Shown one piece after another: positions 12,798 through 64,000 of a stretch of DNA of 64,000 nucleotides (position 1 is its first letter; every line of letters starts with the position of its first letter). Under the pieces are notes generated by a model, which saw only the letters and a program-made list of their open reading frames with translations, ran no database searches and was not told the DNA's origin. Where the stretch lies: positions 8,034-72,033 of the forward strand of contig JAYYUG010000097.1 of assembly GCA_036344135.1 (NCBI GenBank), given 5' to 3'. The DNA is from Pseudomonadota bacterium. Its GTDB lineage: Bacteria > Pseudomonadota > Alphaproteobacteria > MED-G09. Position numbers and translations under genes: made by a program.

Positions 12798-14144
12798 ATG
12801 AGTGAAAAAAGACTAGAGGAGCGTTCAGCAAGGGTTTCTGGGTCTGCCAATAGGGTATATTCGGAAGATGTTTTAATCACCGGAGATCGTTATACTTCAA
12901 TAGATTTCATGGAAAAAGAGATGGATAAACTGTGGTCAAGAGTTTGGAACATAGGAGGTTGGAGTAATGAAATTCCAAAATCGGGAGACTTTGTTACTCA
13001 CCATATAGGACGTGAATCTATACTAATGGTTCGTCAAACGGATGGTTCTGTTAAAGCGTTTCATAATGTCTGTCCTCATAGAGGAAATCGTCTTGTTCAT
13101 AACGATATTGGTTCAGTCCCGGAATTCACGTGCACTTACCATGGTTGGAAATTTGACCTCGGCGGTACGCTTATCTATGCTCAAGATGAAGAGGACTTTC
13201 CCAAAGGTAACCCATGTGGAAAACTTACTTTATCAGAAATCCCATGCGAAGTGTACGGTGGTTTTATTTGGTACAATATGGATGAAAATTGCTTCCCACT
13301 AAGCGGATTTTTGGGTGAAGTCAAAACCTACTTTGATATGCATGATTTAGAGGGCATGAAACGTATCTACCACAAAGTATGTGAAGTCCCTTTTAACTGG
13401 AAAGCATTAAGGGATAATTTTTGCGAATCCTACCATTTGCCAATGACTCATCCTCAAATCATAGATTACTTTGATGACGATTATAAAAATACTGATTTTG
13501 AACTTTTCGAAACCGGTCATAATTTAATGAAAATGAAAGGTTGCTTACCTTCTCTTCGCGATGCAGGAACATTTGAGATTAATGACAAACTTGAGGCAGA
13601 CCTTCTCAACTGGGGGCTGGATCCTGCTGATTTTGAAGGAAAAGCTCATAACGTTAGAGAAGCTCTTCAAAAACAAAAAAAGAAATTAGGTTCTAAAAGA
13701 GGTTTCAAACATTTTGAGAAAATGCCAGACGCTTGGCTTACAGATGCTTTCCATTTTAATGTTTTCCCGGGCACGTCCATCACCTTCACAGCTGAAGTTG
13801 TCTCTCTTCAGAGGACCGAACCACATCCGACCGATCCAAATAAATCGATTTATGATCATTGGCAAATGGCTTTGAAAGCAGATAATTCCGACAGCCCTGA
13901 AACTAACCCAACGATGTTGGTATCCAGTCCCGAAGAAATGGTTGAATGGGAAGAAGTTGAAAAGACAGTGGTAATATTTGGCGAAGAAACACTTAGTGAG
14001 GTCGCTGATCAAGATTTGGAAAGATCGAGCGGTCAACAACTGGGTTTTCACTCCCGAGGATTCAAGGGTGCTTATTTGTCTGGTCAAGAAAATCGTGTGC
14101 AACAATTTCATAACTTCATTGACCGTTATATAAATAAAATATAA
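12798..14144 (+). CDS. Rieske [2Fe-2S] non-heme iron oxygenase, alpha subunit (alpha-only type)
   Basis: CPHRGNRLVH...CTYHGWKF Rieske motif; catalytic-iron motif ESYHLPMTH; GGAGGG RBS. Confidence 0.9.
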   Translation: MSEKRLEERSARVSGSANRVYSEDVLITGDRYTSIDFMEKEMDKLWSRVWNIGGWSNEIPKSGDFVTHHIGRESILMVRQTDGSVKAFHNVCPHRGNRLVHNDIGSVPEFTCTYHGWKFDLGGTLIYAQDEEDFPKGNPCGKLTLSEIPCEVYGGFIWYNMDENCFPLSGFLGEVKTYFDMHDLEGMKRIYHKVCEVPFNWKALRDNFCESYHLPMTHPQIIDYFDDDYKNTDFELFETGHNLMKMKGCLPSLRDAGTFEINDKLEADLLNWGLDPADFEGKAHNVREALQKQKKKLGSKRGFKHFEKMPDAWLTDAFHFNVFPGTSITFTAEVVSLQRTEPHPTDPNKSIYDHWQMALKADNSDSPETNPTMLVSSPEEMVEWEEVEKTVVIFGEETLSEVADQDLERSSGQQLGFHSRGFKGAYLSGQENRVQQFHNFIDRYINKI

Positions 14145-14247: not shown

Positions 14248-16203
14248 TTAAATTTTTCTCGTTAATTCGACAGCCTCATGAATTGCGCTCATCATCGAGT
14301 TTCGACCACGTACATCACCAATAAGATGAGTGTTTCGATTTGTTTTAGCTAGAGCTTCTGAGAGCTCTCTATTAGGTTGATTGAAACTCACCAAGAATAC
14401 GGTTTTGGCTTCTAGTTTACGTTTTCGTTCTGTAAACAAGACTCCTATTTCTACCTCCTCTTCAGTGATTCCACGTAAATAATGACCGCCAATAAAATCA
14501 AAATCTCCTGACATTAATCGCTCTCTAGCAGCGCCTACTGTGACAGGAGGATATGGAACATTTTGCGCCATTTGTTCCATCCTAGAAACCAGAGTTACGT
14601 GAACGCCTGCATTGAGTAGTACATCAGCTACAGAGATTGATTCAAACGTTCCTGTATCGTCAAATATCACAGCTGGTCCCTCTATTTCTGGCTTTTTACC
14701 AACACCAAATAGACTCCAGGAATTATACACATGAGATAAATCAAACCCTGGTATAGGTTCTGCAGGACTAGATACCTGAAAGCCATCGTCGCGCGGTGTT
14801 GTTCCTGTTGCTATTATGATTTCATCTGGAGAAATTTCTCTGACCTTTTCTTCATCAACCATTGAGTTTAAGTGAACATCTACTGTAAGCTCTTCAATTT
14901 CATCCATTAGATACTGGATAATAGCTCCTAAATCCCCACGATTCGGCGCACTAGCAGCCATTGCCACTTGTCCGCCAAGACGACGAGAGGCTTCGTGTAG
15001 CTCTACTTCATGTCCTCTAATAGCTAATGTTCTTGCGGCTTCCAACCCTGCAAGACCTCCTCCAACTATAAGTATTTTTTTGGAATCAAGCACCTTGTCC
15101 TGAGGATCGAAAGGGATAGATTTTTCTTGTGCGGCAGCGACATTTACTACGCAACTTAATGTGGAACCGTTCATTATACGTCCCACACAACCCATATTAG
15201 AACCTACACAAGGTCGAATCTTACGTTCATTACCCGATCGAGCCTTATTGACTAACTCAGGGTCAGCAATAAGCGCACGAACCATAGAAACCATACTGGC
15301 TTCTCCACTAGCTACAATGGAGCTTGCATGGTCGAGGGTCATTATTCTCCCTGTAACAATTGTAGGTTTTGTGATTCCAGGAGTAACAACTTTATTAGGG
15401 ATCATCTCTACCCCTAGTGGATCATCTGAAGGTGCAATCAATTTGTGAAACCTCCAATATGCACCCATATGAAGAGAAATATAGTCAACTAGAGGATCAA
15501 CTATTTTTGCTATCTCAGCATTGTCTTCCGGTTTAAGTCCACCTGGTACATGGTCTTCATTAGGGATACGAACCCCCACCACAAAGGAACTGTCTTTAAC
15601 TTCTTCTCTTATCGCATTTATAATCTCAAGTAGAAAACGAACCCGATTATTTAATGACCCGCCATATTCATCAGTACGATGATTAGTAGCAGGTGATAAA
15701 AACTCATGAATTAAATACCCGCTGGAAGCATGTATATCTACACCATTCATGCCGCCATCACGACATCGTCGTGCAGCTGAAGCAAATGCTGCGGTAATTT
15801 CACCAATTTGCTCCTTCGTCATTTCTAATGGTATAACTCCTATCATAGGGTTAGGTATTGGGCTAGCTGACCAATTCTCAGGTGCTGCTCCATCAGGAAA
15901 ACTTGCCCCAGCATGATAAATTTGCTGGAACAGCTTCATTCCATAGGGTTTTATAGTAGAAGTCAGTTTTTCGTAAAATGGGATGCATTCATCTGACCAC
16001 AAAGGTAATAGGCCTGGTGCGCTAGGATGTACGCCAGTAGCTTCCAAGGTTGACATACCAACTCCTCCCCGGGCCCTAGCCTCGTGATAAGCAATCAAAT
16101 CATCTCCAAGGGTCAAAGTTGCATGAGGGGTTCTCACAATACGGTTCGGGATTGTAATCCCACCTACCTTTATGGGAACAAAGAGGTTATCATATTGAGC
16201 CAT
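14248..16203 (-). CDS. OYE-like NADH:flavin oxidoreductase fused to FAD/NAD(P)-binding domain (2,4-dienoyl-CoA reductase / TMA-dehydrogenase-like)
   Basis: N-terminal OYE TIM-barrel (HATLTLGDD...QIYHAG); partial Fe-S motif CVGSNMGCVGRIMNGSTLSC; Rossmann GGGLAGLEAARTLAIRGHEV. Confidence 0.85.
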   Translation of the reverse strand: MAQYDNLFVPIKVGGITIPNRIVRTPHATLTLGDDLIAYHEARARGGVGMSTLEATGVHPSAPGLLPLWSDECIPFYEKLTSTIKPYGMKLFQQIYHAGASFPDGAAPENWSASPIPNPMIGVIPLEMTKEQIGEITAAFASAARRCRDGGMNGVDIHASSGYLIHEFLSPATNHRTDEYGGSLNNRVRFLLEIINAIREEVKDSSFVVGVRIPNEDHVPGGLKPEDNAEIAKIVDPLVDYISLHMGAYWRFHKLIAPSDDPLGVEMIPNKVVTPGITKPTIVTGRIMTLDHASSIVASGEASMVSMVRALIADPELVNKARSGNERKIRPCVGSNMGCVGRIMNGSTLSCVVNVAAAQEKSIPFDPQDKVLDSKKILIVGGGLAGLEAARTLAIRGHEVELHEASRRLGGQVAMAASAPNRGDLGAIIQYLMDEIEELTVDVHLNSMVDEEKVREISPDEIIIATGTTPRDDGFQVSSPAEPIPGFDLSHVYNSWSLFGVGKKPEIEGPAVIFDDTGTFESISVADVLLNAGVHVTLVSRMEQMAQNVPYPPVTVGAARERLMSGDFDFIGGHYLRGITEEEVEIGVLFTERKRKLEAKTVFLVSFNQPNRELSEALAKTNRNTHLIGDVRGRNSMMSAIHEAVELTRKI

Positions 16204-16341: not shown

Positions 16342-17697
16342 ATGGGAAAAATGTTTAAAGATCTTGACCCGGACACGATGGTTCGATCGCCAGGTATTAC
16401 TTATCAGGAACTACTTGATACTGATTCACACGATGTTCCTGATGTATTAAGAATCCAATCACCAAAAGATCTTGGGCATTCAGAATTCTCGGTAGAACGT
16501 TACATTTCTAAAGACTGGCATGACAAAGAAGTTGAAAGAATGTGGAAAAAAATCTGGCAATTTGTATGTAGGGAAGAAGATATTGCTGAACCAGGCGACC
16601 ATTATCGTTATGATATTGCTGGAATTTCATTTCTCATTCTTCGTACAGAGACGAATGAGATTAAAGCCTATCCCAATTCATGTCTTCACCGTGGTCGGAT
16701 GCTCAAAGAGTTTGATGGTCACGCTTCCGAATTACGATGCCCTTTCCATGGATTCTGTTGGCACCTTGATGGCTCATTAAAGCATATACCTGCAGATTGG
16801 GATTTCCCTCAGATAGATAAAGAAAATTTTTCTTTACCTGAACTACCAATCGCTATCTGGGGAGGATTTGTGTTTATTAATCCTGACCAGCAATGCGAAC
16901 CATTTGATGATTTCATTAAGGATATGAAGACTCAGTTTGAACGTTGGGAACCAGAAAAGCTATATAAACAAGCGCATGTTGCAAAAATCGTGCCTTGTAA
17001 CTGGAAAATCGCACAAGAGGCTTTCTGCGAGGCCTATCATGTCAGCGGAACCCATCCACAAATTTTACCAAGTTTGGGGTGTGTTAATAGTCAGATCGAT
17101 GTTTGGGATAATTGCGCCCGAGTTATTACACCATCAATGACACCTAGTCCTCTTTTAGATTACGAACTTTCTGAAAAAGATATGATGCGTACCATGATGG
17201 ATCTACCACCGGAAGCCCAGGTTCCAGAATTACCAAAAGACATGAATCCTCGAGAGTTTATGGCGAATAGTAGCAGAGAGGATTTAAGGCCTAACGCAGG
17301 AAGTAAAGTTGATGAATATTGTGATGCTGAAATATTAGATAGCCTCGATTATACCTTGTTTCCAAATTTTCATCCGTGGGGTGCATTTAATAAAATAGTG
17401 TATAGATTTAGGCCCAATGGTAACGATCACCGATCAGCGATTATGGAATGCATTATGCTTTCGCCATTTCAAGGAGAAAGACCGCCTCCAGCTCCCATTC
17501 ATTGGTTGAAAGAAGATGAAAAATGGTCCAGTGCCTTGGGTTTTTTAGGTAAAGTTTTCGATCAAGATACTTTCAATATGCCTAAGGTACAACTTGGACT
17601 AGAATCTACCTACAAGTCAGGAATCACACTATCTGGTTACCAGGAAGGGAAGGTTCGTTGGTTACATCACAAATTGACTGAATGGGTGGGAGAATAA
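16342..17697 (+). CDS. Rieske non-heme iron oxygenase, alpha subunit (paralog 2)
   Basis: CLHRGRML...CPFHGFCWH; catalytic-iron motif EAYHVSGTH; clear paralog of 39763 and 60993 genes. Confidence 0.9.
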   Translation: MGKMFKDLDPDTMVRSPGITYQELLDTDSHDVPDVLRIQSPKDLGHSEFSVERYISKDWHDKEVERMWKKIWQFVCREEDIAEPGDHYRYDIAGISFLILRTETNEIKAYPNSCLHRGRMLKEFDGHASELRCPFHGFCWHLDGSLKHIPADWDFPQIDKENFSLPELPIAIWGGFVFINPDQQCEPFDDFIKDMKTQFERWEPEKLYKQAHVAKIVPCNWKIAQEAFCEAYHVSGTHPQILPSLGCVNSQIDVWDNCARVITPSMTPSPLLDYELSEKDMMRTMMDLPPEAQVPELPKDMNPREFMANSSREDLRPNAGSKVDEYCDAEILDSLDYTLFPNFHPWGAFNKIVYRFRPNGNDHRSAIMECIMLSPFQGERPPPAPIHWLKEDEKWSSALGFLGKVFDQDTFNMPKVQLGLESTYKSGITLSGYQEGKVRWLHHKLTEWVGE

Positions 17698-18185: not shown

Positions 18186-18524
18186 TTATGTCCTCCTAAT
18201 TCTCTTTTGCTTAAAATCCAGTTCTACTTTGATGTCGGATTTAAGGACCGATTGACAAGCAAGAATATATCCTTCTTTTAATTGTTCATCAGCCAACACA
18301 TATCCGAAATCTGTAAGTGGTCTAATCTTTCCCTCTAACAATTTGCATCTACATGTCCCGCAACTTCCGACCCGACAATAATGTGGCCATTTAATACCAT
18401 TGTCCAAAGCAGCTGTAAGTAATTTCTCTTCCCGTCTTACTTTCAAAGTTTCATTAGCATTTACAATATTTGCCACAAAATGCTTATCTTTTTTTATAAA
18501 AAAATTAAGCACATTTTCAAACAT
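18186..18524 (-). CDS. [2Fe-2S] ferredoxin (plant/adrenodoxin-like Cys spacing)
   Basis: CRVGSCGTCRC...C (Cx4Cx2C...C) cluster-binding motif. Confidence 0.8.
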   Translation of the reverse strand: MFENVLNFFIKKDKHFVANIVNANETLKVRREEKLLTAALDNGIKWPHYCRVGSCGTCRCKLLEGKIRPLTDFGYVLADEQLKEGYILACQSVLKSDIKVELDFKQKRIRRT

Positions 18525-18971: not shown

Positions 18972-20120
18972 TTAAGCATAACCAACTTGTTTGTTAATCT
19001 TAGTTGCAATTTCACGCTCTGCATCAGTTGCAAAAGTATTATCCCAATGATCAAGCTTTTTCTTAATTAAAGCATGCCATAAAGGTGGCACAAGGGCTAA
19101 AGTAAATCCAGTAAAGTAACCCCACCCAGGATTGGGTCCTCCAACATCATCCAATTCCCAGAAATGTGTTTCTCCACGAACATGGTGATCGCATTGACGA
19201 CCAATTTCTATGAAAAACCAACTCGTAAAAGCCGTATCATTATCCCAAGAATGACGGTGTTCAATGGGTTTGTCCTTTTCTCGTACTAACCCAAAATGCT
19301 CCATATAGTTAAGAGCTTCCAGCTCAAAATTAGATATAGTCCAGACAAAGAACATGCAAGCAACTCCGACTATACCGCCTGCCCACACAAACAGGATTAT
19401 AGTTGGAAGACTTATTAAATAACCTGTAATCCATTTGTTATCTAATGAGAAAAACGATTTCCCTTGTTTCTCAAGTTTTTCTTGTTCCAACTCAAAAGAA
19501 AATTTTGACTGTCCCATATGTGATAACCAAAAATGTTTGTAAAGACTTCTACCCCTAGGAGAAGTGGCAGGATCATTTTCATGGGCAAGTTCTAAATGAT
19601 GGTTATAGACATGTGCGTAACAAAAATGTGCAGCACCGCTCAACCCCATCATCAATCTTGAAATAGGCCAACCTATATCTTTAGTATGAGATAATTCATG
19701 ACCATAAATTATTCCAAGTCCTGCAAATGCACCTGCTGACAAAGAAGCTCCGTACAATTCAAGACCTGTAATGCCTGTTTGAACAGGTAACCAACCCAAC
19801 AACGTAACAGTCCCAAAATCAGCTCCACTCGTATACTGATAAACTCTCCAAGCTAATACTACTTGTAAGATAATGAATATTGGCAGCATCAAATACATTA
19901 CTAGATTTTGTAATTCTTTTATTCCATAAGACTTTCCATTTTTATCAAATCCAGCACCTTTAGTATGGAAGTTGATCACCAGAGTATCTATAGTAATGCC
20001 AACTAAAAATAAAACAGCTCCTGTCCAAACAAAAGGTCCGCCAACAATGAGACCTAATATCGTGACAGACGTCAAAACTGGTACAATAAAGTATCTAATA
20101 TTAATAAAAAATTTTTTCAT
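18972..20120 (-). CDS. alkB: AlkB-family integral-membrane alkane 1-monooxygenase (fatty-acid-desaturase-like diiron hydroxylase)
   Basis: His boxes HELSH, HVYNHH, RQCDHH and the AlkB-specific NYMEHFGL (NYIEHYGL) motif; about 6 TM helices. Confidence 0.8.
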   Translation of the reverse strand: MKKFFINIRYFIVPVLTSVTILGLIVGGPFVWTGAVLFLVGITIDTLVINFHTKGAGFDKNGKSYGIKELQNLVMYLMLPIFIILQVVLAWRVYQYTSGADFGTVTLLGWLPVQTGITGLELYGASLSAGAFAGLGIIYGHELSHTKDIGWPISRLMMGLSGAAHFCYAHVYNHHLELAHENDPATSPRGRSLYKHFWLSHMGQSKFSFELEQEKLEKQGKSFFSLDNKWITGYLISLPTIILFVWAGGIVGVACMFFVWTISNFELEALNYMEHFGLVREKDKPIEHRHSWDNDTAFTSWFFIEIGRQCDHHVRGETHFWELDDVGGPNPGWGYFTGFTLALVPPLWHALIKKKLDHWDNTFATDAEREIATKINKQVGYA

Positions 20121-39762: not shown

Positions 39763-41175
39763 ATGAGCGAGAGAATTAAAGAAAAAGAAGAAAATTTAGA
39801 ACCGGGAGAGGCCCGATCTCCATTTACAAGTTACACTGAATATTTAGAAGAAGACTCAAAAAAATTACCAGATTTTATGATGGACGAAAACTATGAGTTT
39901 CTTGGTTCTGAAGATATTTCAATGGAAAGATATACTTCCAAAGAATTCTTCAAAAAAGAAGCGGAATGCATGTGGACTAGAGTCTGGCAATTTGCTTGTA
40001 GAGTGGAAGATATTCCTGAGGTAGGTGATAGCCTAGTTTATGATATTCTTGATTACTCATTCCTAATAGTAAGATCTGAAGAAAATAAGATTCAAGCTTT
40101 TTACAACTCTTGCCTTCATAGAGGAAGAAAATTAAAAACAGAAAGAGGTATTAGTAAAGATATCGAATGCCCATTCCACGGATATTGTTGGAATCTTGAT
40201 GGTACATTGAAACACACACCTGCTGCATGGGATTTTCCTCATGTCAAAGCAGATAAGTGGAGCCTTCCAGAAGTAAGAGTTGAACTTTGGCAGGGTTTTG
40301 TTTTTATTAATATGGATGATAATGCGGTTTCTCTCGAAGAATATTTAGCCCCATTACCCGAACATCATGAAAGATGGAATTTAGCAGATTGTAAAAAAGT
40401 TATTCATGTTTCTAAAGTAGTCCCAGGAAATTGGAAAACGGTTCAAGAGGCTTTTATGGAAGCCTTTCATGCTACAAAAATTCATCCTGAGATACTTCCT
40501 TTCCAAGCTGATGAAAACGCAAGATATGATATTTATGGTGATCATATGAATAGAAACTTAGCTCTTGTTGGTAAGCCCGGACCCCATTGTTGGCCAGTTA
40601 CTGAACAAGAAATACTAGATACAATCTCTTATGGTTCTGGGAGGGTTTTTGATGAAAATAAGACTATAGTTCCAGAAGGAGAAGAAGCAAGAAAAGTAGC
40701 AGCAGAAGCTGCTAGAAAAGCTTATAATGAGGCTGATGGACATGATTACTCAGATAAATCCGACGCGGAAATGCTCGATGCTTTAGTCTATAATGTTTTT
40801 CCAAATTTTTCACCTTGGGGTGGATTTCCTAGAAATCTTATTTATAGGTTTAGACCAAATGGTACTAGAGAAGATTCAGCTATTATGGAAGCTTTCTTTC
40901 TTCAAAGGAATCATAAAGACCCTGAAAAACAAGAACCTTACGAACCTATTCCTATTCACTACCTTAGTGAAGATGAAAACTGGGATGACGCTGAAGAGTT
41001 AGTAGGTATCGGTTTCATATTTGATCAGGATATGTCAAATATACCGGAAGTTGAAAAAGGAATGAGAGCCTCAAAAAAAGGTGCAGTGACTTATGCAAAC
41101 TATCAAGAAAGCCGTATCCGTCATTACCATCAGACAATAGATAAATATATTTCTAAAGGACCTTTTAAACCTTAA
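39763..41175 (+). CDS. Rieske non-heme iron oxygenase, alpha subunit (paralog 3)
   Basis: CLHRGRKL...CPFHGYCWN; catalytic-iron motif EAFHATKIH. Confidence 0.9.
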   Translation: MSERIKEKEENLEPGEARSPFTSYTEYLEEDSKKLPDFMMDENYEFLGSEDISMERYTSKEFFKKEAECMWTRVWQFACRVEDIPEVGDSLVYDILDYSFLIVRSEENKIQAFYNSCLHRGRKLKTERGISKDIECPFHGYCWNLDGTLKHTPAAWDFPHVKADKWSLPEVRVELWQGFVFINMDDNAVSLEEYLAPLPEHHERWNLADCKKVIHVSKVVPGNWKTVQEAFMEAFHATKIHPEILPFQADENARYDIYGDHMNRNLALVGKPGPHCWPVTEQEILDTISYGSGRVFDENKTIVPEGEEARKVAAEAARKAYNEADGHDYSDKSDAEMLDALVYNVFPNFSPWGGFPRNLIYRFRPNGTREDSAIMEAFFLQRNHKDPEKQEPYEPIPIHYLSEDENWDDAEELVGIGFIFDQDMSNIPEVEKGMRASKKGAVTYANYQESRIRHYHQTIDKYISKGPFKP

Positions 41176-54426: not shown

Positions 54427-57423
54427 TTGATGTCTATTAGGGCTCAGCTACTCTTATTTGTAGTTATAGGTTACTTATTAATTGCCGTTGTCTTTTTCTT
54501 ATCCACTCAAACTAGAGATTCGATTCAGCAAGATGCTGCTGGTGAGTCCTTGGTTGTTCTTTATGAATCCGCCTGGTATCAGACATACAACAACACCTAT
54601 GATTTAATGGGTCGTTGGTTACCTGGTTACGGCGAAAAAGGAAATATATGGGATCCCGATGACGAAACATTTATAGATGAGGTAGATGCACAGGGAAAAT
54701 ATTTAAACCCAATATTCAATACGATAGAAAACAGATCATTGGGAGATCTTCAGTATCTAATTGAGTTTATCTTCGAAGAAGAGTTAGACGAAGGTGACTT
54801 GAGTTTTGTTATGGCTTATTTTCCCACTGGCGAAAGATTTTACTGTGGAAGCGCCTTAGATTTGCTTGGTATAGATCCTTGTAGCCCAAAAGCGAGACTA
54901 GGGTTTTTCTCATATCTCGACTCCTACATAAAAGATATTTCACAAAGACCTAAACAATCTACTCTCAAGATTCTTGATTCAGAAAACAAGCAGACAACAA
55001 CTCTTAATCAAACTTATTCTTTTCCAATAAAGGTGAACAAAAAAACAATTGCTTTGATAGTTCTAGGGGTTGATGTACGAAAGGCAATTGAGGTTTTTGA
55101 AGATGAGTTTGAAGTAAGAACCGGTATAAAAACTCCTGAGGGTTTAATTTCCTTAGAGGAAGATTATTCATCCGACGATTTGAATATCGAAGCAAGATAC
55201 GGTATAGAAAATTACTCAGAGTTGGTTGCAAAGGCTAACCTTCTTATGGAATCGAAAGGAAGTAGATACAGCGACAAAGATTTTTCTCTTGGTACCTCAA
55301 TTACTCTGTTACCTTTAAGTTCATATCTTTCCTCTGACAAGGCAGAATTATTTATTTTTAAAGATGAGAAGATCTCAATGGCTAGATCTTCTGAGGTTCT
55401 TACGAGAAGCTATATTATTGTAACTTTAATGCTTTTGCTTATTGTCTCTTTAACCTCATTCGTCACTTACCGGACATTCGGAGGTATAACAAGAGCAATT
55501 AAAGTTTTAGAAGGTCTTACAAAAGGTGATCATACTCAACAAATGCCAAAAAGATCAGGTCTGATGGCTTCTGAAAATGATGAAGTAGGTCAACTATCAA
55601 CTGCTCTTCATAGCTATAGAGGTCATTTATTGGAGATGGAGGATATTAGAAAAGAACAAGCCCAAAGAAGAAAAGAAAGAGACAGAGTTATTATTGAGAA
55701 GATGTCTTTTCTAGCTGATCAACTAGAGGGAGACGCACAAAAACTTATTCTTGAGGATGTCGAAAAAATGACAGAACTGGCAAAGAAGGGTGATGATGTG
55801 GACTCCGAAGAGGCATCAGTCGAATTAATGTCTCTAGCATTCTCTCGAATGTCTGATGAAGTAAATGCTTTGATCGCAGCAAGAACAACTGAGATGGAAT
55901 CTTCCAGAGATGAAGCAAGGGACGCTAATGAAGAAAAGACAAGATTTTTCGCAAACATGAGTCATGAACTTAGGACTCCGCTTAACGCTATTTTAGGATA
56001 CGGAGAGATGCTTGCAGAAGATTGTGAAGACCTGGGTTATGATGATCTTTTGCCTGACTTAAAGAAAATTACTTCTGCAGGTAGTCACCTTCTCTCATTA
56101 ATCAACAATATTCTGGATATTTCAAAGATTGAAGCAGGAAGGATGGAGCTCTATTTAACCAGTTTTGAAATAGAATCCATGGTGGAGACAATTAAAGATG
56201 TTACCGGACCTTTAGCCTCTGCTAATGATAATGGTTTTAAAGTCAATTTACAGGACGTTTTAGGATCCATGACTCAAGATGAAACAAAGATTAGACAATG
56301 CTTGACCAACTTCTTGAGTAATGCATTTAAATTCACTTTAAGTGGAACGGTAACTCTTGATGTAGATACTTTCATGCAAGACGAATTAGAAATGATCAGG
56401 TTCGCGGTAACGGATACGGGCGAAGGAATGACAGAAGAAGGTCTCAGTAAAGTATTTAGGGAATATGAGCAAGCTGAAAGATCAACATCTGCTAAACACG
56501 GTGGTACTGGTCTAGGTCTACCTATCACAAAGAAACTCGCAGAAATGATGGGAGGAGATGTAATGGTTACCAGTGAGCTTGGAGCGGGGTCAGTTTTTAC
56601 CCTTTATGTTCCAAGAGTATGTCCACAAGAACACGATGAAGTAGAGGACGCTAATGCAATAAGCAAACTCTCTGATAAGGAGAAAGTAGTTGTCTTAATT
56701 GATGATGATGTCCCAATTCATGATATTATTAGAAGGACTCTATCAAAGATTGGTCTCACTCTTATCGGTGCAACTGATGGTGAAAAAGGCTTACAAATAG
56801 TCAGAGAAATGAAACCCAAGCTTCTTTTATTAGATGTCTTGATGCCTGGTAGGGATGGATGGTCTATCCTTAAAGAGTGCAAGTCTGATCCTGAACTAAG
56901 AGATATGCCAGTAGTTATGGTCAGCCAGCTATCACAGGACGTTCTTTCAGAATCATTAGGTGCGGATGATTATCTTACAAAACCTATCGATAGAGATTTG
57001 TTTCTAGAAACTGTCCAACGACTAATTAAAGATTCTCCGAATGGCGAAAATAAAGTTCTTGTTATTGACGATGATGCTGATGTCAGAGAATTACTTTCTA
57101 GGATGCTTAAGGATGCAGGATGGATTTCAGTAACAGCAAGAGATGGTAAAGAGGGTCTGGAAAAAGTAAAAGACACACCTTCGTTAATAGTTCTTGACCT
57201 TGAGATGCCGCGAATGGATGGATTTGAATTCTTAGATGCCTATATGAAGAACTATAACGAGTTAAACCGTGCACCTATACTGGTTTACTCTGGAAAAGAT
57301 CTTTCCGAAGTTCAAAAAGATATTTTGAATAAGAATGTCGCCGGTATGGTTAGAAAAGATGAGGTTTCAATGGATGAACTCTCAAAAATTGTGAAAAATA
57401 TTTATCAAGAATCTATCTCCTAG
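54427..57423 (+). CDS. Hybrid sensor histidine kinase (periplasmic sensor-TM-HisKA-HATPase_c-REC-REC)
   Basis: Two TM segments flanking a ~300-aa periplasmic domain; H-box FFANMSHELRTPLNAILGY; N/G boxes; two receiver domains (VLIDDD...LLDVLMPGRDG and VLVIDDD...LDLEMPRMDG). Confidence 0.9.
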   Translation: MMSIRAQLLLFVVIGYLLIAVVFFLSTQTRDSIQQDAAGESLVVLYESAWYQTYNNTYDLMGRWLPGYGEKGNIWDPDDETFIDEVDAQGKYLNPIFNTIENRSLGDLQYLIEFIFEEELDEGDLSFVMAYFPTGERFYCGSALDLLGIDPCSPKARLGFFSYLDSYIKDISQRPKQSTLKILDSENKQTTTLNQTYSFPIKVNKKTIALIVLGVDVRKAIEVFEDEFEVRTGIKTPEGLISLEEDYSSDDLNIEARYGIENYSELVAKANLLMESKGSRYSDKDFSLGTSITLLPLSSYLSSDKAELFIFKDEKISMARSSEVLTRSYIIVTLMLLLIVSLTSFVTYRTFGGITRAIKVLEGLTKGDHTQQMPKRSGLMASENDEVGQLSTALHSYRGHLLEMEDIRKEQAQRRKERDRVIIEKMSFLADQLEGDAQKLILEDVEKMTELAKKGDDVDSEEASVELMSLAFSRMSDEVNALIAARTTEMESSRDEARDANEEKTRFFANMSHELRTPLNAILGYGEMLAEDCEDLGYDDLLPDLKKITSAGSHLLSLINNILDISKIEAGRMELYLTSFEIESMVETIKDVTGPLASANDNGFKVNLQDVLGSMTQDETKIRQCLTNFLSNAFKFTLSGTVTLDVDTFMQDELEMIRFAVTDTGEGMTEEGLSKVFREYEQAERSTSAKHGGTGLGLPITKKLAEMMGGDVMVTSELGAGSVFTLYVPRVCPQEHDEVEDANAISKLSDKEKVVVLIDDDVPIHDIIRRTLSKIGLTLIGATDGEKGLQIVREMKPKLLLLDVLMPGRDGWSILKECKSDPELRDMPVVMVSQLSQDVLSESLGADDYLTKPIDRDLFLETVQRLIKDSPNGENKVLVIDDDADVRELLSRMLKDAGWISVTARDGKEGLEKVKDTPSLIVLDLEMPRMDGFEFLDAYMKNYNELNRAPILVYSGKDLSEVQKDILNKNVAGMVRKDEVSMDELSKIVKNIYQESIS

Positions 57424-57782
57424 CTTATTAAGCTTTCGATTTTTTCGAGAAGTCTTTTAAAATCTATAGGTTTTGTATCAAAATCATCTGCTCCGCACGC
57501 CAAAGCCTTTACTCTATCGGACTCTAAAGCGTGTGCTGTCAAAGCTATAATTGGTATCTCTTTAATTTCATCATCTGCCTTTGCAGTTGTTGTGGCCTCC
57601 CAACCGTCCATGACCGGTAATCCCATATCCATTAGCACTAGATCAGGTTTCTCAGATTTCATCATCTCAATTCCTTCTTTTCCGTCAAGGGCAAGGAAAA
57701 CCTCATAATTTCTTCTTTGAAGCCTTCTTGATAACATATCTCTATTCATTTCGTTGTCCTCAACATATAATATCTTTGCCAT
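57420..57782 (-). CDS. Single-domain response regulator (CheY-like REC)
   Basis: ILYVEDNEMNRDML...DLVLMDMGLPVMDG...ALTA...K. Confidence 0.9.
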   Translation of the reverse strand: MAKILYVEDNEMNRDMLSRRLQRRNYEVFLALDGKEGIEMMKSEKPDLVLMDMGLPVMDGWEATTTAKADDEIKEIPIIALTAHALESDRVKALACGADDFDTKPIDFKRLLEKIESLIS

Positions 57783-57795
57783 CTTATTTCCTTTT

Positions 57796-59265
57796 TTAAT
57801 TATTCAAAATAAACTTATCTCTTCCTGTCTTTTTCGCTTCATAAAGCCTCTTGTCTGCCTTATTAACTACATCAGAGATATTTCCAGATTCAGATGTTAA
57901 CGCTATTCCTCCACTCGCAGTGATAGTAATTGATTGACCTTCGTAATCAACTTTAACAGCATGAATACTAGATCTCAATTTATCGCAAAATTCAGAAATA
58001 TTTTTACCATCCTCATTAAAGATTACCGCTAAAAACTCTTCACCGCCGATTCTACCAACAATGTTAGGTTCAGAAATAAAGCTGTCTAAGGTATTAGCTA
58101 GAGCCTTCAAAACCTCATCACCTCCAGAATGACCATAAGTATCATTGACTGTCTTAAAGAAATCTATGTCAATCATAATAACTGTAAAATCTTTACGCTT
58201 TCCATCTTGTAGTTCTGAATATGCGTCTTCAAGAGTTTCGAAAATAACTCTTCTATTATGAATCCCTGTTAGTTGATCGGTGGTGGCTTGGATATGAAGC
58301 GTATTAACAAGCTCCTTTTCCCTTTCTCGAAAGAACTTTCTTTCCAAGGAAGATATAACTTTGGCTAATAATATAGTACCGTTAAGAGGTTTGGGAAGAT
58401 AATCTTGAGCTCCCAATTGTATGCATTTAGCAATTCCATCTACATCATTAAATGCAGAAACCATAATTATTGGGAGATTTTCGCTTCTGTTGTCCTTTCT
58501 AAATCTCTTAAGTAACTCCAATCCATTAATGTCGGGCAGTATTACATCTAGAAGAATTAGATCAGGTAGTTTTTTATTAACCTCCTCAATAGCACTATTT
58601 CCATCATAAGCTATTCTGCAATTCAAGCCCTGCAATTCAAGCCTTCTTTTAAGAACCTCACAATTAGTAACATTATCATCAACTATTAAAATATCTGCAC
58701 CCTGCAAGCTTTCATCTAAGTCGAGAGAAAAATCTATATCACCCAGAGATTTAAACAAAGATTCAGCAGTTTCTAATTGTGAAGAACCTTCATCATTTGT
58801 TTTTGAAGGCTCTCCTCGGATATAATCAACAAAAGTCTCTATGGCTTTCTCAGTCTCTCTGGAAAGATTTATTATCTTGTGGAAATCCAATAAGGCCTCC
58901 TTCGACAAATCGTCCTCTAAATCTTCTATTAGAATTTCGCTATAACCAATAATGGCATTTAGAGGGGTTCTTAGATTATGCCTTAACTCTGAATACTCCT
59001 CCGGTTTTCTTTCTTCTGTGGTAGCATTTGACCCGGTATTTTCTTCGAAAGCTTCCTCATATTGTTCAATAAGTTTAATACAACCTGATTTAATCTGATC
59101 TATCTCATCCCCAGCAGCAATATTGGCCTCGTTGATACTTTTTTCAATCATCTCTAGATAATCAGAGATTGCACCTACAGGAGTAGTGAATTCTTGTTTA
59201 ATCTGAGCTAAAATAATATCTCTAGCCCCTTTGGGAGCTTTATTTCCTGTGACCTTACTCATCAT
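57796..59265 (-). CDS. HisKA-like (x2, no ATPase) - REC - GGDEF diguanylate cyclase
   Basis: N-terminal H-box-like segments (QEFTTPVGAISDY lacking His; ELRHNLRTPLNAIIGY with His); REC ILIVDDN...LLDVILPDINGLE; GGDEF with GGEEF active site and RxxD I-site-like region. Confidence 0.85.
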   Translation of the reverse strand: MMSKVTGNKAPKGARDIILAQIKQEFTTPVGAISDYLEMIEKSINEANIAAGDEIDQIKSGCIKLIEQYEEAFEENTGSNATTEERKPEEYSELRHNLRTPLNAIIGYSEILIEDLEDDLSKEALLDFHKIINLSRETEKAIETFVDYIRGEPSKTNDEGSSQLETAESLFKSLGDIDFSLDLDESLQGADILIVDDNVTNCEVLKRRLELQGLNCRIAYDGNSAIEEVNKKLPDLILLDVILPDINGLELLKRFRKDNRSENLPIIMVSAFNDVDGIAKCIQLGAQDYLPKPLNGTILLAKVISSLERKFFREREKELVNTLHIQATTDQLTGIHNRRVIFETLEDAYSELQDGKRKDFTVIMIDIDFFKTVNDTYGHSGGDEVLKALANTLDSFISEPNIVGRIGGEEFLAVIFNEDGKNISEFCDKLRSSIHAVKVDYEGQSITITASGGIALTSESGNISDVVNKADKRLYEAKKTGRDKFILNN

Positions 59266-60349
59266 GATTTCCGATTAAAGTATCCAAAAACTCAGGTTTA
59301 TGCATAAGAAAACCCTGACCTATTTTGCATCCAATCTTTACCATGGAGGCTTTCTGTTCCTCTGTCTCTATGCCTTCTCCTATCATTTCTAATGAAAGGG
59401 AGTTGCAAACTTCAACTACAAATTTAATAAGTTGTGCTGTTGATTTATCATCTAATCCATTAGTAAAATGTTTATCCAGTTTAATGACGTCTAAGGGAAG
59501 ATCTTTGACATATTTAAGTGATGCATAACCAGCGCCAAAGTCGTCTAACGCAATTTTTATTCCTTTTTCTTTAAGTACATTTAGATATTTACTTGCCTTC
59601 ATAGTATCACTTAATTCAGCAGTCTCAGTTACTTCAAGTCCAAATTCTCCGGGTTCAAATTCAAAACTATCAGCAAAATCTGCAAATATTTTGCTGAACT
59701 CTGGGTGCATAATCGTATGAGCAGAAACATTTAAATATACAGTTGCGTTTTTCAGACCAATTTTATTTTTAACAGGAAATATTTCTGAAAGTTTCTTCAA
59801 AGATGATTTAACAACAAGAGAAAATAGACTTTCTCCTTCAATTTGAGGAATTATTATGTCATTAGGGATAATTTTACCCTCATCATCTCTTAACCTCAAC
59901 AGAGCCTCAACACCTGTCACTTCTCCCGTTTCTAGATTAAACTGCTTTTGATAAGCTAAATCAATACGGTCATACTCTACACAGGATATTGTTTGTTTGA
60001 GGGCTTCCAATCCAAGACGTGATTCACACAAAACCTCTATAAGTAGGAAATTATCAGAATCCTCTGAGGGGATTAGGTGAATTCTAGTTGTTATATAAAA
60101 TTCGATTTTTCGAAGACATATTTCAATAGAAGTGGAATAGGTGTTAGCTATTAAATCTTTGGAAGATTGAGAGTCTTCATCTATTTTAATATTTTTTATT
60201 GTTAGGTCAGATGTGTTTCCTGTACGAAATATGTACTCAGACGCCAGATTTATCCACTTAATGGTTCCATCTGTTTCACAGATAATGTAAGGGCTCGGAT
60301 GATGCATTAGAGATTTGAATAAATAATCTAGGTGATTTGAAGAATCCAT
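59255..60349 (-). CDS. EAL-domain c-di-GMP phosphodiesterase with N-terminal sensory domain
   Basis: EALLR, DDFGAGYAS, KLDKHF, GEGIETEEQ catalytic motifs. Confidence 0.85.
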   Translation of the reverse strand: MDSSNHLDYLFKSLMHHPSPYIICETDGTIKWINLASEYIFRTGNTSDLTIKNIKIDEDSQSSKDLIANTYSTSIEICLRKIEFYITTRIHLIPSEDSDNFLLIEVLCESRLGLEALKQTISCVEYDRIDLAYQKQFNLETGEVTGVEALLRLRDDEGKIIPNDIIIPQIEGESLFSLVVKSSLKKLSEIFPVKNKIGLKNATVYLNVSAHTIMHPEFSKIFADFADSFEFEPGEFGLEVTETAELSDTMKASKYLNVLKEKGIKIALDDFGAGYASLKYVKDLPLDVIKLDKHFTNGLDDKSTAQLIKFVVEVCNSLSLEMIGEGIETEEQKASMVKIGCKIGQGFLMHKPEFLDTLIGNHDE

Positions 60350-60359
60350 TTCCGAGCCT

Positions 60360-60815
60360 TTAAATTTTATTTCTTTGTTCTTCTACAAGCTTAACAAAAT
60401 TCTTGGGAAACGTTGGAGACACCCAATCCCAAATTTCGAGGTTCTTTTTATCTCTTAAGAGGGTTCTAAATGATGATAACATTGCTATCCATTCTTCCTC
60501 ATCTAGCATACCAATAACATATTGATAATGTTGGTTCTGTCTTGCTCTTAAAATGGCTGTAAAGTGGGTTAGGTATATTGAGTTCTCTTCTTCATCAAGT
60601 TCTTCACCTTTTCTCAGTTTTACTTTGATCTTTACGATATCTTTATTAAGTCCAGCTAATGTTAGTTTTTGGTGACTATCAGCCATATTTTGCCGAGCAT
60701 TAGCTCTCGCAACTCTATTTTGCTCCTTCAGCTCTGTAACAAGGAAATAGACCGTTACAAGAACAGTAAAAGGACCGACAGTCTGGAGAATTATTACTAT
60801 TGTCTCAAAACCCAT
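60360..60815 (-). CDS. Hypothetical membrane-anchored protein
   Basis: 151 aa; single N-terminal TM helix, charged coiled region. Confidence 0.4.
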   Translation of the reverse strand: MGFETIVIILQTVGPFTVLVTVYFLVTELKEQNRVARANARQNMADSHQKLTLAGLNKDIVKIKVKLRKGEELDEEENSIYLTHFTAILRARQNQHYQYVIGMLDEEEWIAMLSSFRTLLRDKKNLEIWDWVSPTFPKNFVKLVEEQRNKI

Positions 60816-60992
60816 AAGCAGACTCCTTACTCATAATTTTAATCATAATTTTCCTTATAGCTAATTATATTTTATTCCAACTCAATAGTACATATGAGAA
60901 AAAGCGTATGATTAGCAAATATTTTACAAAATAAAGTGTTGTTGTTAATATCGATGGTGCTGTTGTCAAGATGGCTGGGGGAATCTAAAACC

Positions 60993-62417
60993 ATGAAAGT
61001 GATCAAAGCAAAAGATATGAATTATAAAGCCAACGGTGATGGTCCCACCTTGCAAAAAGTTTTTGATGGTGACAGCATCCAACCACCAGCAGCCTTTCGA
61101 GAAGACCCCAGTATGGAACTGGGTACAGCTGACATCTCTATCGATCGTTACACTTCCCAAGAATGGCATCAAGCCGAAGTAAAGAATGTCTGGCAAAAGG
61201 TTTGGCAGGTTGCCTGCCGATTAGAGGAAATCCCCGAGATAGGCGACTACGTTGTCTACGACATTGTAGACGACAGCTTAATCATTACCCGTACGAGTGA
61301 AAACGAAGTACATGCCTATTTTAATGCCTGTCTGCATCGTGGGAATGCTCTATGTATGGAAAATGGCCATGCCGAGAAATTCCGCTGTCCTTTCCATGGT
61401 TTTACTTATTCTTTGCAAGGCAAACTTGAATCTATCCCCAGTGACTGGGATTTTCAGCATGTCGACAAGAATGAATATTCCTTGCCCGAGGCCAAGGTCG
61501 GTTTTTGGGGTGGTTTTGTCTTTGTTAATCTCGACCCGAATTGTGGGTCTCTGGAAGATTATCTGGAGATCATCCCTAAGCATCTTGATGGATTTGATTT
61601 TGATAAAAAGTATAAGGCTATCCATTTATCTAAGGTGATGCCGTGCAATTGGAAGGTCTGCCAAGAGGCCTTTATTGAAGGCTATCATGTCGCCGAAACC
61701 CATTATGAACATACAGCTGATGGTGGTATCGACCCAGATGGTATTGGCTCCTTCATGGATGATGTAATGATGCAATATGATGTCTGGCCTGAAAGCAAGC
61801 ACGTGACCCGCATGATCCTGGCAAGCGGTGTCGCCAGCCAACATGTCGCTAAGCACGACCGGTCCGAACAACACATTATCGATATGATGTTACACTATCT
61901 GCCTGAAGACCAACGCCCGCAGTTGAAAGAAGGTGAAAAGGCCCGCCCTGCCCTTGCTGAACATAGCCGAAAAACACTTGGTGCCTTGTATGGCGTTGAT
62001 CTATCGCAACACAGTGACACAGATGTTCTAGACCAGGTGGAATACACACTTTTTCCAAACTTTACCTTTTGGCCAACCCTGTTTGCACCGTTGCTGTATC
62101 GTTTCAGGCCCCACGGCCATAATGTCGATGAAAGCATCATGGAAGTGTACATGCTTTATCCTATCCCCGAAGATGGACGAGACTATAAAACAAGTGAAGA
62201 AGTACGGCTGGCACCCGGTGAAACGTGGTCTTCACGCTCCGAACTTGGTAATTACGGCCCTATTCTCGACGAAGACACTCCCAATATGATCCGCATGACC
62301 AAAGGGCTGAAGACATCGCGTAAGCCGGGAATCACTCTCGCCAACTACCAGGAAAACCGCTTGCGCCAGTTTCATGGAGTTTTGGATGATTATGTTGGCG
62401 GGAAATACAAGAAATGA
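60993..62417 (+). CDS. Rieske non-heme iron oxygenase, alpha subunit (paralog 4, in GC-rich island)
   Basis: CLHRGNAL...CPFHGFTYS; catalytic-iron motif EGYHVAETH; ATG 60993 with GGGGAA RBS preferred over upstream GTG 60936; GC ~50% vs ~37% background. Confidence 0.85.
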   Translation: MKVIKAKDMNYKANGDGPTLQKVFDGDSIQPPAAFREDPSMELGTADISIDRYTSQEWHQAEVKNVWQKVWQVACRLEEIPEIGDYVVYDIVDDSLIITRTSENEVHAYFNACLHRGNALCMENGHAEKFRCPFHGFTYSLQGKLESIPSDWDFQHVDKNEYSLPEAKVGFWGGFVFVNLDPNCGSLEDYLEIIPKHLDGFDFDKKYKAIHLSKVMPCNWKVCQEAFIEGYHVAETHYEHTADGGIDPDGIGSFMDDVMMQYDVWPESKHVTRMILASGVASQHVAKHDRSEQHIIDMMLHYLPEDQRPQLKEGEKARPALAEHSRKTLGALYGVDLSQHSDTDVLDQVEYTLFPNFTFWPTLFAPLLYRFRPHGHNVDESIMEVYMLYPIPEDGRDYKTSEEVRLAPGETWSSRSELGNYGPILDEDTPNMIRMTKGLKTSRKPGITLANYQENRLRQFHGVLDDYVGGKYKK

Positions 62418-63295
62418 ACCCCGGTATAACTGCCAAGGTCAGTAGTAGAGTCGGACTGGACCTAACAATTAACCCTCTTTCCGAAGGCGTTGCATATGCA
62501 ACCTCAGACGTTTGGACTCTTGGAGGATGGAAAATTCAATTCGTCCACATTGGCCCTGGTCAACGCTTGGAACTTAACCAGGCTGATGGCACCATCTATA
62601 TAAAGATTATTCTGGGTGACCTGATAAACCTTGAACAAGAGCGATTTGCACCCCCCAAACAGGCTAGAGATACGCTGGTGACAACAGACTTTGTAGATGC
62701 CGGTGTTGCGGGTGCTCTTGTAACTGTCATCATAGAAACAAGTATAGTTGCCGACAATATCCACTCCATGGATGAAGTCACTTTCAAAGGACCTTTCAGC
62801 GAAGAGTTTAAGTGGGTCCAATTTGACCAGAGTCATATCGGCAAGAGCATTCCTTATTTTAAGGGTCTTGATGCCTATCTATTGCCTGGCTTCCACCTGC
62901 TCGATACCAAGGGTGATGAAATAATCTATGTGCACTTTTGGTCGGCTGGTAAAGGTGTCGACATGTCACCCCACGACCATTCATTGGCCCCCACCAAGAA
63001 CGCCCCTGCATTCACTGAAACCCACTGGGTCTTTAACAACGGTACGGGAAAGGGAGGTATGTATGATTGCGACCCCACCGACCGGAGAAAGCGAACCTAT
63101 ATAATCATGCAACGGGGGCAAGACCATGGCCCATTCTGGGTAATTAACGAAGACACGGGCATGCCCAGATTACGGGAAAATGGCGCCATAGAATTTGGTT
63201 TCCATGGTTGGCAGGCGGGTAACGATAATGAGCCCCAGCAAGCCTATGACCTGGTAGGCGCTTTCGAAATGAACCAAGCGCACTCAAAAGTTTAA
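62414..63295 (+). CDS. Uncharacterized 293-aa protein translationally coupled (ATGA overlap) to Rieske oxygenase; possibly metal-binding beta-barrel
   Basis: No P-loop, Rossmann or Fe-S motif; His-rich HFWSAGKGVDMSPHDHS segment; same elevated GC as upstream gene. Confidence 0.55.
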   Translation: MNPGITAKVSSRVGLDLTINPLSEGVAYATSDVWTLGGWKIQFVHIGPGQRLELNQADGTIYIKIILGDLINLEQERFAPPKQARDTLVTTDFVDAGVAGALVTVIIETSIVADNIHSMDEVTFKGPFSEEFKWVQFDQSHIGKSIPYFKGLDAYLLPGFHLLDTKGDEIIYVHFWSAGKGVDMSPHDHSLAPTKNAPAFTETHWVFNNGTGKGGMYDCDPTDRRKRTYIIMQRGQDHGPFWVINEDTGMPRLRENGAIEFGFHGWQAGNDNEPQQAYDLVGAFEMNQAHSKV

Positions 63296-63340: not shown

Positions 63341-64000
63341 CTATTTGATTGTGTTAATAAGATCTACATAACCTTTAACAAGGTTGTTTGATCTTGGTCC
63401 GCCTAATATGTCTTCTTCCATCTTATATGGCGTATAACAAAATGAGGTGCGAGAATCCATATCAGCTATAGACAGCGACCCTCCCCATCCAGACCAAAAA
63501 ACAACATTTCTATTTCCAAAGTACCCGTGCCATATGTCTGAACTATCATCCTGAAGTGAGAAACCCAAGCCCCATACCACAGATGGACCCAACGCAAGAT
63601 CTTCTCCTCTTATTTGTTCATTTAAAGCCATTTTTACAATCTCATCAGATAATAAATTTTTATCGTGAGATACTCCTCCATTTGCCATCAGAGCCATACA
63701 TTTAGCCATGGATCTTGCGTTCCCGTGACCGTTACCAGCTGGAATTTCAGCTTTTCTCCATTCTTCAGTTAAAGCATCTGAAGGTTGTATCATTCCATTA
63801 ACAAATGTTTTTTCTGCAATAGAGCCGGGCCTAAGCTCCAGCATATCTGTTGGATTTGGATTATCTGGCATATGGATTTCTGCAACTCTATTAAAATGAG
63901 ATTTATCAAGTCCGATATGAAAATCAGCTTGCAAAGGATCTGCAATATTTTCTTTAAAAAAGGCTCCCAAACTCTGTCCGGATATTCTTCTTACAACCTC
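63341..64000 (-). CDS. Serine hydrolase of the beta-lactamase/esterase family, C-terminal part (N-terminus beyond right window edge)
   Basis: Reading frame continues past 63970 (ORF-track M there is a TTG); C-terminal FWSGWGGS-type motif as in PF00144 proteins. Confidence 0.5.
   Translation of the reverse strand, partial: EVVRRISGQSLGAFFKENIADPLQADFHIGLDKSHFNRVAEIHMPDNPNPTDMLELRPGSIAEKTFVNGMIQPSDALTEEWRKAEIPAGNGHGNARSMAKCMALMANGGVSHDKNLLSDEIVKMALNEQIRGEDLALGPSVVWGLGFSLQDDSSDIWHGYFGNRNVVFWSGWGGSLSIADMDSRTSFCYTPYKMEEDILGGPRSNNLVKGYVDLINTIK

Follow-up and report, generated by a model that had tools for sequence, protein, structure and literature searches.

What is the task of a protein whose gene begins within the last codons of a Rieske oxygenase gene, and is that protein a part of the oxygenase or an enzyme in its own right? 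This question is raised by two genes on contig JAYYUG010000097.1 (assembly GCA_036344135.1, a Pseudomonadota bacterium placed in the alphaproteobacterial lineage MED-G09), of which we analysed a stretch of 64,000 nucleotides (nt), hereafter the window. The upstream gene (60993..62417, + strand) encodes a Rieske non-haem-iron oxygenase of the alpha-only type, 474 amino acids (aa) long, with a Rieske [2Fe-2S] domain (PF00355), a Ring_hydroxyl_A domain (PF00848) and an EGYHVAETH iron motif in the catalytic domain; its best PDB matches are ring-hydroxylating alpha subunits and cover the N-terminal half only. The downstream gene (62414..63295, + strand, ATG start) encodes 293 aa. An original prediction, made from the letters of the window, had called its product unknown and proposed it as a novel partner of the oxygenase, either a component in place of a missing reductase or a second enzyme that would process what the oxygenase makes, for instance a hydrolase or isomerase. 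We suggest that the downstream protein, a cupin, and a dedicated clade of Rieske oxygenases make up a catabolic module in which the cupin is a metal-dependent follow-up enzyme (an isomerase or dehydratase) on the Rieske product, a reading to which we assign a probability of roughly one half. Probably the cupin acts after the oxygenase and is no new subunit of it.

A free-standing copy of the AUDH double-cupin domain, judged by sequence and model

The 293-aa protein does have recognizable relatives. It matches Pfam family PF18637 (AUDH_Cupin), the cupin domain of the fungal sugar enzyme aldos-2-ulose dehydratase/isomerase (AUDH), scoring 98.7 bits where the curated gathering threshold is 25 (E 5.5e-28), over profile positions 29-308 of 308, and with 4a7k it has a homolog of solved structure, so that the label "unknown" has to be given up; in a scan against NCBIfam no family model matched. 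An AlphaFold2 model built from 16 homologs is confident (pLDDT 91.7, pTM 0.91) and all-beta. When this model is submitted to Foldseek, as the original prediction had proposed, the bicupin of AUDH comes first (TMq 0.82, E 5e-24), all other bicupins scoring TM<0.3, and the two-cupin fold can be superposed on the middle domain of AUDH. The alignment covers residues 465-731 only of the 900-residue chain 4a7k_A, and the open reading frame stops 7 residues past the cupin domain. With 18 homologs, 42 invariant alignment columns and a confident model, this open reading frame is a real gene, present at 62414..63295 and overlapping the Rieske gene just as first described.

AUDH (EC 4.2.1.110; PDB 4a7k/4a7y/4a7z), from Phanerochaete chrysosporium, thus provides the closest known relative with its bicupin middle domain. 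The two proteins differ in several respects: AUDH has about 900 aa and carries an N-terminal seven-bladed propeller with a Zn dehydratase site as well as a C-terminal lectin domain, whereas the window protein is the cupin alone, is bacterial, has a loop between HxH and E that is 6 residues longer, and has a Rieske oxygenase as its partner, not sugar metabolism. On the strength of sequence and predicted fold we regard the 293-aa protein as a free-standing bacterial copy of the AUDH double-cupin domain. No signal peptide was found in it, and its sequence indicates a cytoplasmic protein that retains the His/Glu metal site of the AUDH cupin domain.

A number of other identities were considered and rejected. 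The protein is not the AUDH enzyme proper, since the seven-bladed propeller and the C-terminal lectin-like domain are both absent, nor is it a gentisate, 1-hydroxy-2-naphthoate or quercetin dioxygenase, as it falls outside the Cupin_2/GDO-type sequence families and shows no close structural similarity. A Rieske beta subunit is equally out of the question, given an all-beta bicupin model and no Pfam hit to PF00866 (Ring_hydroxyl_B, NTF2-like). As for an electron-transfer component (a reductase or ferredoxin), the earlier remark that the protein has few Cys and no reductase or ferredoxin motifs was correct: there is a single Cys (C219) in its 293 aa, and Pfam and NCBIfam scans gave no Fer2, Rieske, FAD_binding or NAD_binding match at E<=1, leaving it without an Fe-S, flavin or NAD domain.

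How widespread are such proteins? A word-seeded search of 5.8 billion proteins returned 18 homologs at E<=1e-3, all of them PF18637 and none of them named, while a profile search run exhaustively over 1.84 billion cluster representatives gave 171 at E<=1e-3, of which 27 reached E<=1e-30. The exact cupin sequence is held by NCBI as MEE3295607.1, a "hypothetical protein" from a Pseudomonadota metagenome-assembled genome (MAG), and it also occurs in Tara Oceans mesopelagic data. The taxonomic label of the lineage looks uncertain: the identical protein is filed in NCBI under both Pseudomonadota and Gammaproteobacteria MAGs, and the MAG locus L001 (CAJWUE010000005.1), with a G+C content (GC) of ~38-40%, is labelled "uncultured Rhodobiaceae bacterium". 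In the literature searched, no paper describes a stand-alone bacterial AUDH_Cupin architecture with clade-specific, mobile coupling to a Rieske gene; LumY, a cupin of riboflavin catabolism, surfaced in that search and was set aside as an unrelated mention.

A predicted metal site in the second barrel

Where in the double barrel might a reaction take place? The original prediction had taken a His-rich stretch as a hint of a metal-binding beta-barrel, and it was right to do so: the protein is a bicupin, and the stretch (HFWSAGKGVDMSPHDHS, residues 174-190) is its first cupin metal motif, H187-x-H189. Nine residues (H187, H189, E202, H204, H238, H264, W266, D279 and E285) are invariant across 19 bacterial homologs, and the same nine are nearly invariant over 52 family members, an alignment that takes in AUDH-like proteins of fungal type, 600-900 aa long and containing the propeller. 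H187, H189, E202, H204, H238 and H264 align with H630, H632, E639, H641, H684 and H709 of 4a7k_A, respectively. We predict from this conservation that the His/Glu set in the second, C-terminal cupin barrel, with codons spanning 62972..63205 on the + strand, is a metal site.

The cupin domain of AUDH reportedly binds a catalytically required Zn2+, with ascopyrone M lying in its second coordination sphere, and the same work, by Claesson et al. in 2012, is said to have proposed this domain as an isomerase site. Among the weak structural matches of the window cupin are the non-redox bicupin isomerases BacB (bacilysin) and AerE (aeruginosin) and the cupin phosphomannose, phosphoglucose and lyxose isomerases. 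These are metal-dependent enzymes in which a His/Glu site drives keto-enol or double-bond isomerisation.

Pairing with a single Rieske clade

Is the adjacency of the two genes peculiar to this genome? Among close cupin homologs with readable context, to which our linkage claim applies, the cupin gene lies directly 3' of a Rieske gene of 473-475 aa in seven loci: the window and six others, where the cupin encoded immediately downstream of the Rieske gene is 91% (L001), 65% (P0002 contig), 60% (L005/L006), 58% (L009), 57% (L010) and 54% (L011) identical to the window protein. We speak of a two-gene module where a cupin gene is found directly downstream of a Rieske alpha gene, with an overlap or a gap of no more than 8 nt, in several genomic contexts and with co-divergence of the two proteins. 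The seven loci are of this kind and fall into at least three distinct flanking contexts: signalling genes and a beta-lactamase-family gene at the window locus, TetR and a luciferase-like/ADC/PNPOx cluster on the P0002 contig, and acyl-CoA ligase, CoA-transferase, P450 and acyl-CoA dehydrogenases in L005-L011. The cupins at 53% identity or less are not.

The Rieske side of the pairing is similarly restricted. Taken broadly, the family counts 1218 relatives at E<=1e-30, and in a neighbour-joining tree the cupin-linked members, the window gene included, are monophyletic. Rieskes of the sister clade that are 67-70% identical (P0023, P0024 and P0033) come without a cupin, the next gene being a P450, nothing, or an MFS gene, and the same is true of the relatives P0040 and P0046. 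Moreover, the pairwise identities of Rieske and cupin proteins go hand in hand (r=0.94 for 21 pairs from 7 loci), with the cupin diverging faster than its partner.

Cupins at 44-53% identity have no adjacent Rieske gene and lie in surroundings of a catabolic type. At 53%, the L012 cupin is found in the order paralogous Rieske, TetR, cupin, and at 44-47% the contexts are SnoaL and TetR genes behind a short-chain dehydrogenase/reductase (SDR) gene (SDR-SnoaL-TetR-cupin), two enoyl-CoA hydratase (ECH) genes (ECH-ECH-x-cupin-DsbA-like), or PNPOx-like-cupin-LysR. Because these distant cupins do without an adjacent Rieske gene, the cupin is, as far as gene order can tell, an enzyme able to act on its own, which became attached to a Rieske gene in one lineage; the pair then stayed together. 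The neighbourhood comparison suggested at the outset therefore has a divided outcome: close homologs with readable context do follow one monophyletic Rieske subclade, but distant ones do not lie directly behind a Rieske gene. The supposed linkage itself stands, in that the protein did not turn out to belong to a known unrelated family devoid of conserved Rieske linkage.

One pair of loci deserves separate mention. The P0002 contig and L012 (5904-8897) are syntenic, sharing luciferase-like monooxygenase, ADC, PNPOx-like, Rieske paralog, TetR and cupin genes, and the former differs only by a dedicated Rieske gene between TetR and cupin. In terms of gene content, this looks like a snapshot of the pairing being gained or lost. 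The PNPOx-like genes that recur near cupins were considered as one family and rejected as such, there being no detectable similarity among them.

Stand-alone cupins raise the possibility that the protein acts on a keto- or anhydro-sugar, as AUDH does, independently of the Rieske enzyme, adjacency merely reflecting shared regulation or joint transfer. The sole characterised relative acts on 1,5-anhydrofructose and glucosone, after all, and an AUDH_Cupin domain forms the N-terminal part of two fusion proteins, P0148 (1583 aa) and P0149 (1201 aa), both of which contain a type I phosphomannose isomerase, and the former a transaldolase as well. In the Rosetta-stone manner, these fusions may hint that some of PF18637 is engaged in sugar chemistry, or they may be merged gene models. 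Yet no sugar-metabolism genes lie beside any bacterial locus, where CoA ligase, acyl-CoA dehydrogenase, P450, SDR, SnoaL and TetR genes are found instead, and tight overlap, clade-specific pairing and co-divergence favour a pathway shared with the Rieske enzyme. We therefore consider a sugar enzyme of this kind improbable.

Probable electron supply from elsewhere in the genome

If the cupin does not deliver electrons to the oxygenase, what does? The window contains four alpha-only Rieske genes (12798-14144, 16342-17697, 39763-41175 and 60993-62417, all on the + strand), whose products share 25-40% identity, and none of the four adjoins a reductase or a beta subunit. In another genome, a relative of the window Rieske gene at 60993-62417 is followed by a Fer2 gene. 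From this gene content, the genome would seem to hold many orphan Rieske oxygenases served by a common electron-transfer chain, and supply in trans appears to be normal for this alpha-only family. If so, the missing adjacent reductase is no hint that the cupin fills that role.

Candidate shared donors for the Rieske paralogs can be named within the window. They are a stand-alone plant-type 2Fe-2S ferredoxin (18186-18524, - strand; Fer2, E 4e-17) and nearby redox genes, namely an adjoining gene of the fatty-acid-desaturase family (18972-20120, - strand) and a fusion of an old yellow enzyme with a pyridine-nucleotide-disulphide oxidoreductase, resembling 2,4-dienoyl-CoA reductase (14248-16203, - strand).

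These findings bear on whether the cupin physically belongs to the oxygenase, be it as a structural, effector or gating subunit or as a stand-in for the missing electron-transfer partner. Such a role would sit well with a start/stop overlap, which favours equimolar synthesis, and with a pairing that is strict within one Rieske clade and accompanied by co-divergence of the proteins. However, a protein with one Cys and none of the relevant cofactor domains is not equipped for electron transfer, a cupin is not an NTF2-like beta subunit, and the metal site looks catalytic and is conserved with a true enzyme. Nor are the two proteins dependable companions beyond the clade, as cupin homologs at 44-53% identity occur without an adjacent Rieske gene and sister Rieskes at 67-70% identity without a cupin. 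The part of the original prediction that envisaged a novel component, or a substitute for the reductase, fares correspondingly badly: the three other alpha-only Rieske genes of the window also lack an adjacent reductase, and the Fer2 ferredoxin is encoded in the same stretch. We hold a component role to be very unlikely. Taken together, the identity of the cupin, its linkage to the Rieske clade and the evidence for electron supply in trans disfavour both an oxygenase component and an independent sugar enzyme.

Structure, surroundings and origin of the locus

The junction of the two genes consists of an ATGA overlap of 4 nt (62414..62417, + strand), read from the sequence within AAGAAATGAAC, where the cupin ATG (62414-62416) lies on the Rieske TGA (62415-62417). 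This overlap is kept in L001, L009 and L010; L005 and L011 have a gap instead, of 2 nt and 8 nt, respectively. A consensus scan of the + strand found no promoter-like or terminator-like site between the genes, and we would expect them to be co-transcribed and probably translationally coupled. The most likely start of the Rieske gene is ATG 60993, and not GTG 60936; this makes its product 474 aa long, like that of its 96%-identical counterpart in L001, a syntenic MAG locus. In the AT-rich spacer 5' of the Rieske gene, a consensus scan picks out a sigma-70-like promoter candidate (TTTACA-17-TAATAT with TG; 60923..60951, + strand), which is weak evidence only, since the number of such sites is not above shuffle expectation.

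Immediately upstream of the module lies a dense signalling block (54427-60349), syntenic in L001, that encodes a 998-aa hybrid histidine kinase with receiver domains, a 120-aa response regulator, a HisKA-REC-GGDEF protein and an EAL protein; it is followed by a gene for a 151-aa protein without a Pfam hit (60360-60815, - strand). On the other side, a convergent gene of the serine beta-lactamase/esterase family (63341-63970, - strand) is cut by the window end. The order in L001 (8930-13093) continues from the beta-lactamase/esterase-family gene to SnoaL_4, metallo-beta-lactamase-fold, SnoaL and enoyl-CoA hydratase genes, a catabolic context that extends beyond the end of the window.

Base composition sets the module apart from these surroundings. 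The Rieske and cupin genes have a GC of 0.466 and 0.482, with 0.475 and 0.49 at third codon positions (GC3), compared to 0.34-0.39 (GC3 0.24-0.34) for neighbour genes and 0.369 for the whole window. The high-GC stretch coincides with 60993-63295 and has its counterpart at 6580-8882 of L001. The three other Rieske paralogs of the window have native GC3 (0.22-0.33), and in other lineages, with a GC of 0.57-0.66, the module equals its host. Since a module of GC 0.47-0.48 sits in a genome of 0.37 and is matched to its host elsewhere, the data fit an import of both genes as a unit from a donor of higher GC, and composition further suggests that the import was recent and that the donor was probably gammaproteobacterial. 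Around the module we found no flanking repeats or mobile-element scars, only short repeats at chance level.

A metal-dependent follow-up enzyme?

How might the module work? We envisage that, after horizontal acquisition by a low-GC marine bacterium, the Rieske enzyme would be reduced by a shared ferredoxin/reductase encoded elsewhere and would then oxygenate its substrate. The divalent metal of the cupin (Zn2+ in AUDH) would act on the Rieske product as a Lewis acid, at a carbonyl or enol oxygen, and the cupin would catalyse a non-redox step, either an isomerisation (keto-enol or double-bond shift) or a dehydration. This chemistry is borrowed by analogy from AUDH, the sole characterised relative, with which the earlier suggestion that the cupin isomerises or hydrolyses what the oxygenase makes is in keeping.

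A different kind of follow-up is conceivable. The cupin might depend on Fe(II) or Mn(II) and be a dioxygenase, cleaving the hydroxylated Rieske product or oxidising it further, and salicylate 5-hydroxylase with gentisate 1,2-dioxygenase offers a precedent of the same gene logic, a Rieske oxygenase followed by a bicupin metalloenzyme that acts on its product. That system differs from ours in that the window cupin lies outside the gentisate/Cupin_2 dioxygenase families, and the window Rieske enzyme has neither a beta subunit (it is alpha-only) nor electron-transfer genes beside it. We see such a dioxygenase as possible but doubtful.

Returning to the non-redox follow-up enzyme, several points weigh against it. 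In other cupins, the HxH...E...H set also holds Fe, Mn or Ni, and O2-dependent chemistry is therefore possible. Neighbours vary between loci, and neither a pathway nor a substrate can be read from the context; moreover, adjacency and co-divergence show co-inheritance, not reaction order or physical interaction. The phosphomannose isomerase and transaldolase fusions point to sugar chemistry over typical Rieske substrates. Even in AUDH, the isomerase step at the cupin site is said to be a structural proposal, and the literature searched holds no experiment on any bacterial PF18637 member.

One might go further than a follow-up enzyme and imagine a new two-enzyme oxygenase-isomerase/dehydratase system, possibly physically associated, in which an unstable oxygenated intermediate (for example a cis-diol, hemiacetal or alpha-hydroxy-ketone) is trapped at an AUDH-type Zn site and rearranged there. 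Were this true, bacterial PF18637 proteins would receive their first assigned function, and marine bacteria would have in the pair a mobile cassette with which to attack a class of dissolved organic compounds. We rate this more daring proposal as unlikely.

What would follow if the module works as we suggest? PF18637 is a very small family, the sole studied member of which is an enzyme of fungal secondary metabolism, whereas its bacterial members are annotated only as "hypothetical protein". A confirmed role would refine enzyme annotation, not overturn a concept. A free-standing cupin clade, tied to a single Rieske clade and transferred together with it horizontally, provides a testable entry to the function of these bacterial proteins. 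It would also bear on what the alpha-only Rieske oxygenases of marine heterotrophs, which are abundant but uncharacterised, take as their substrates.
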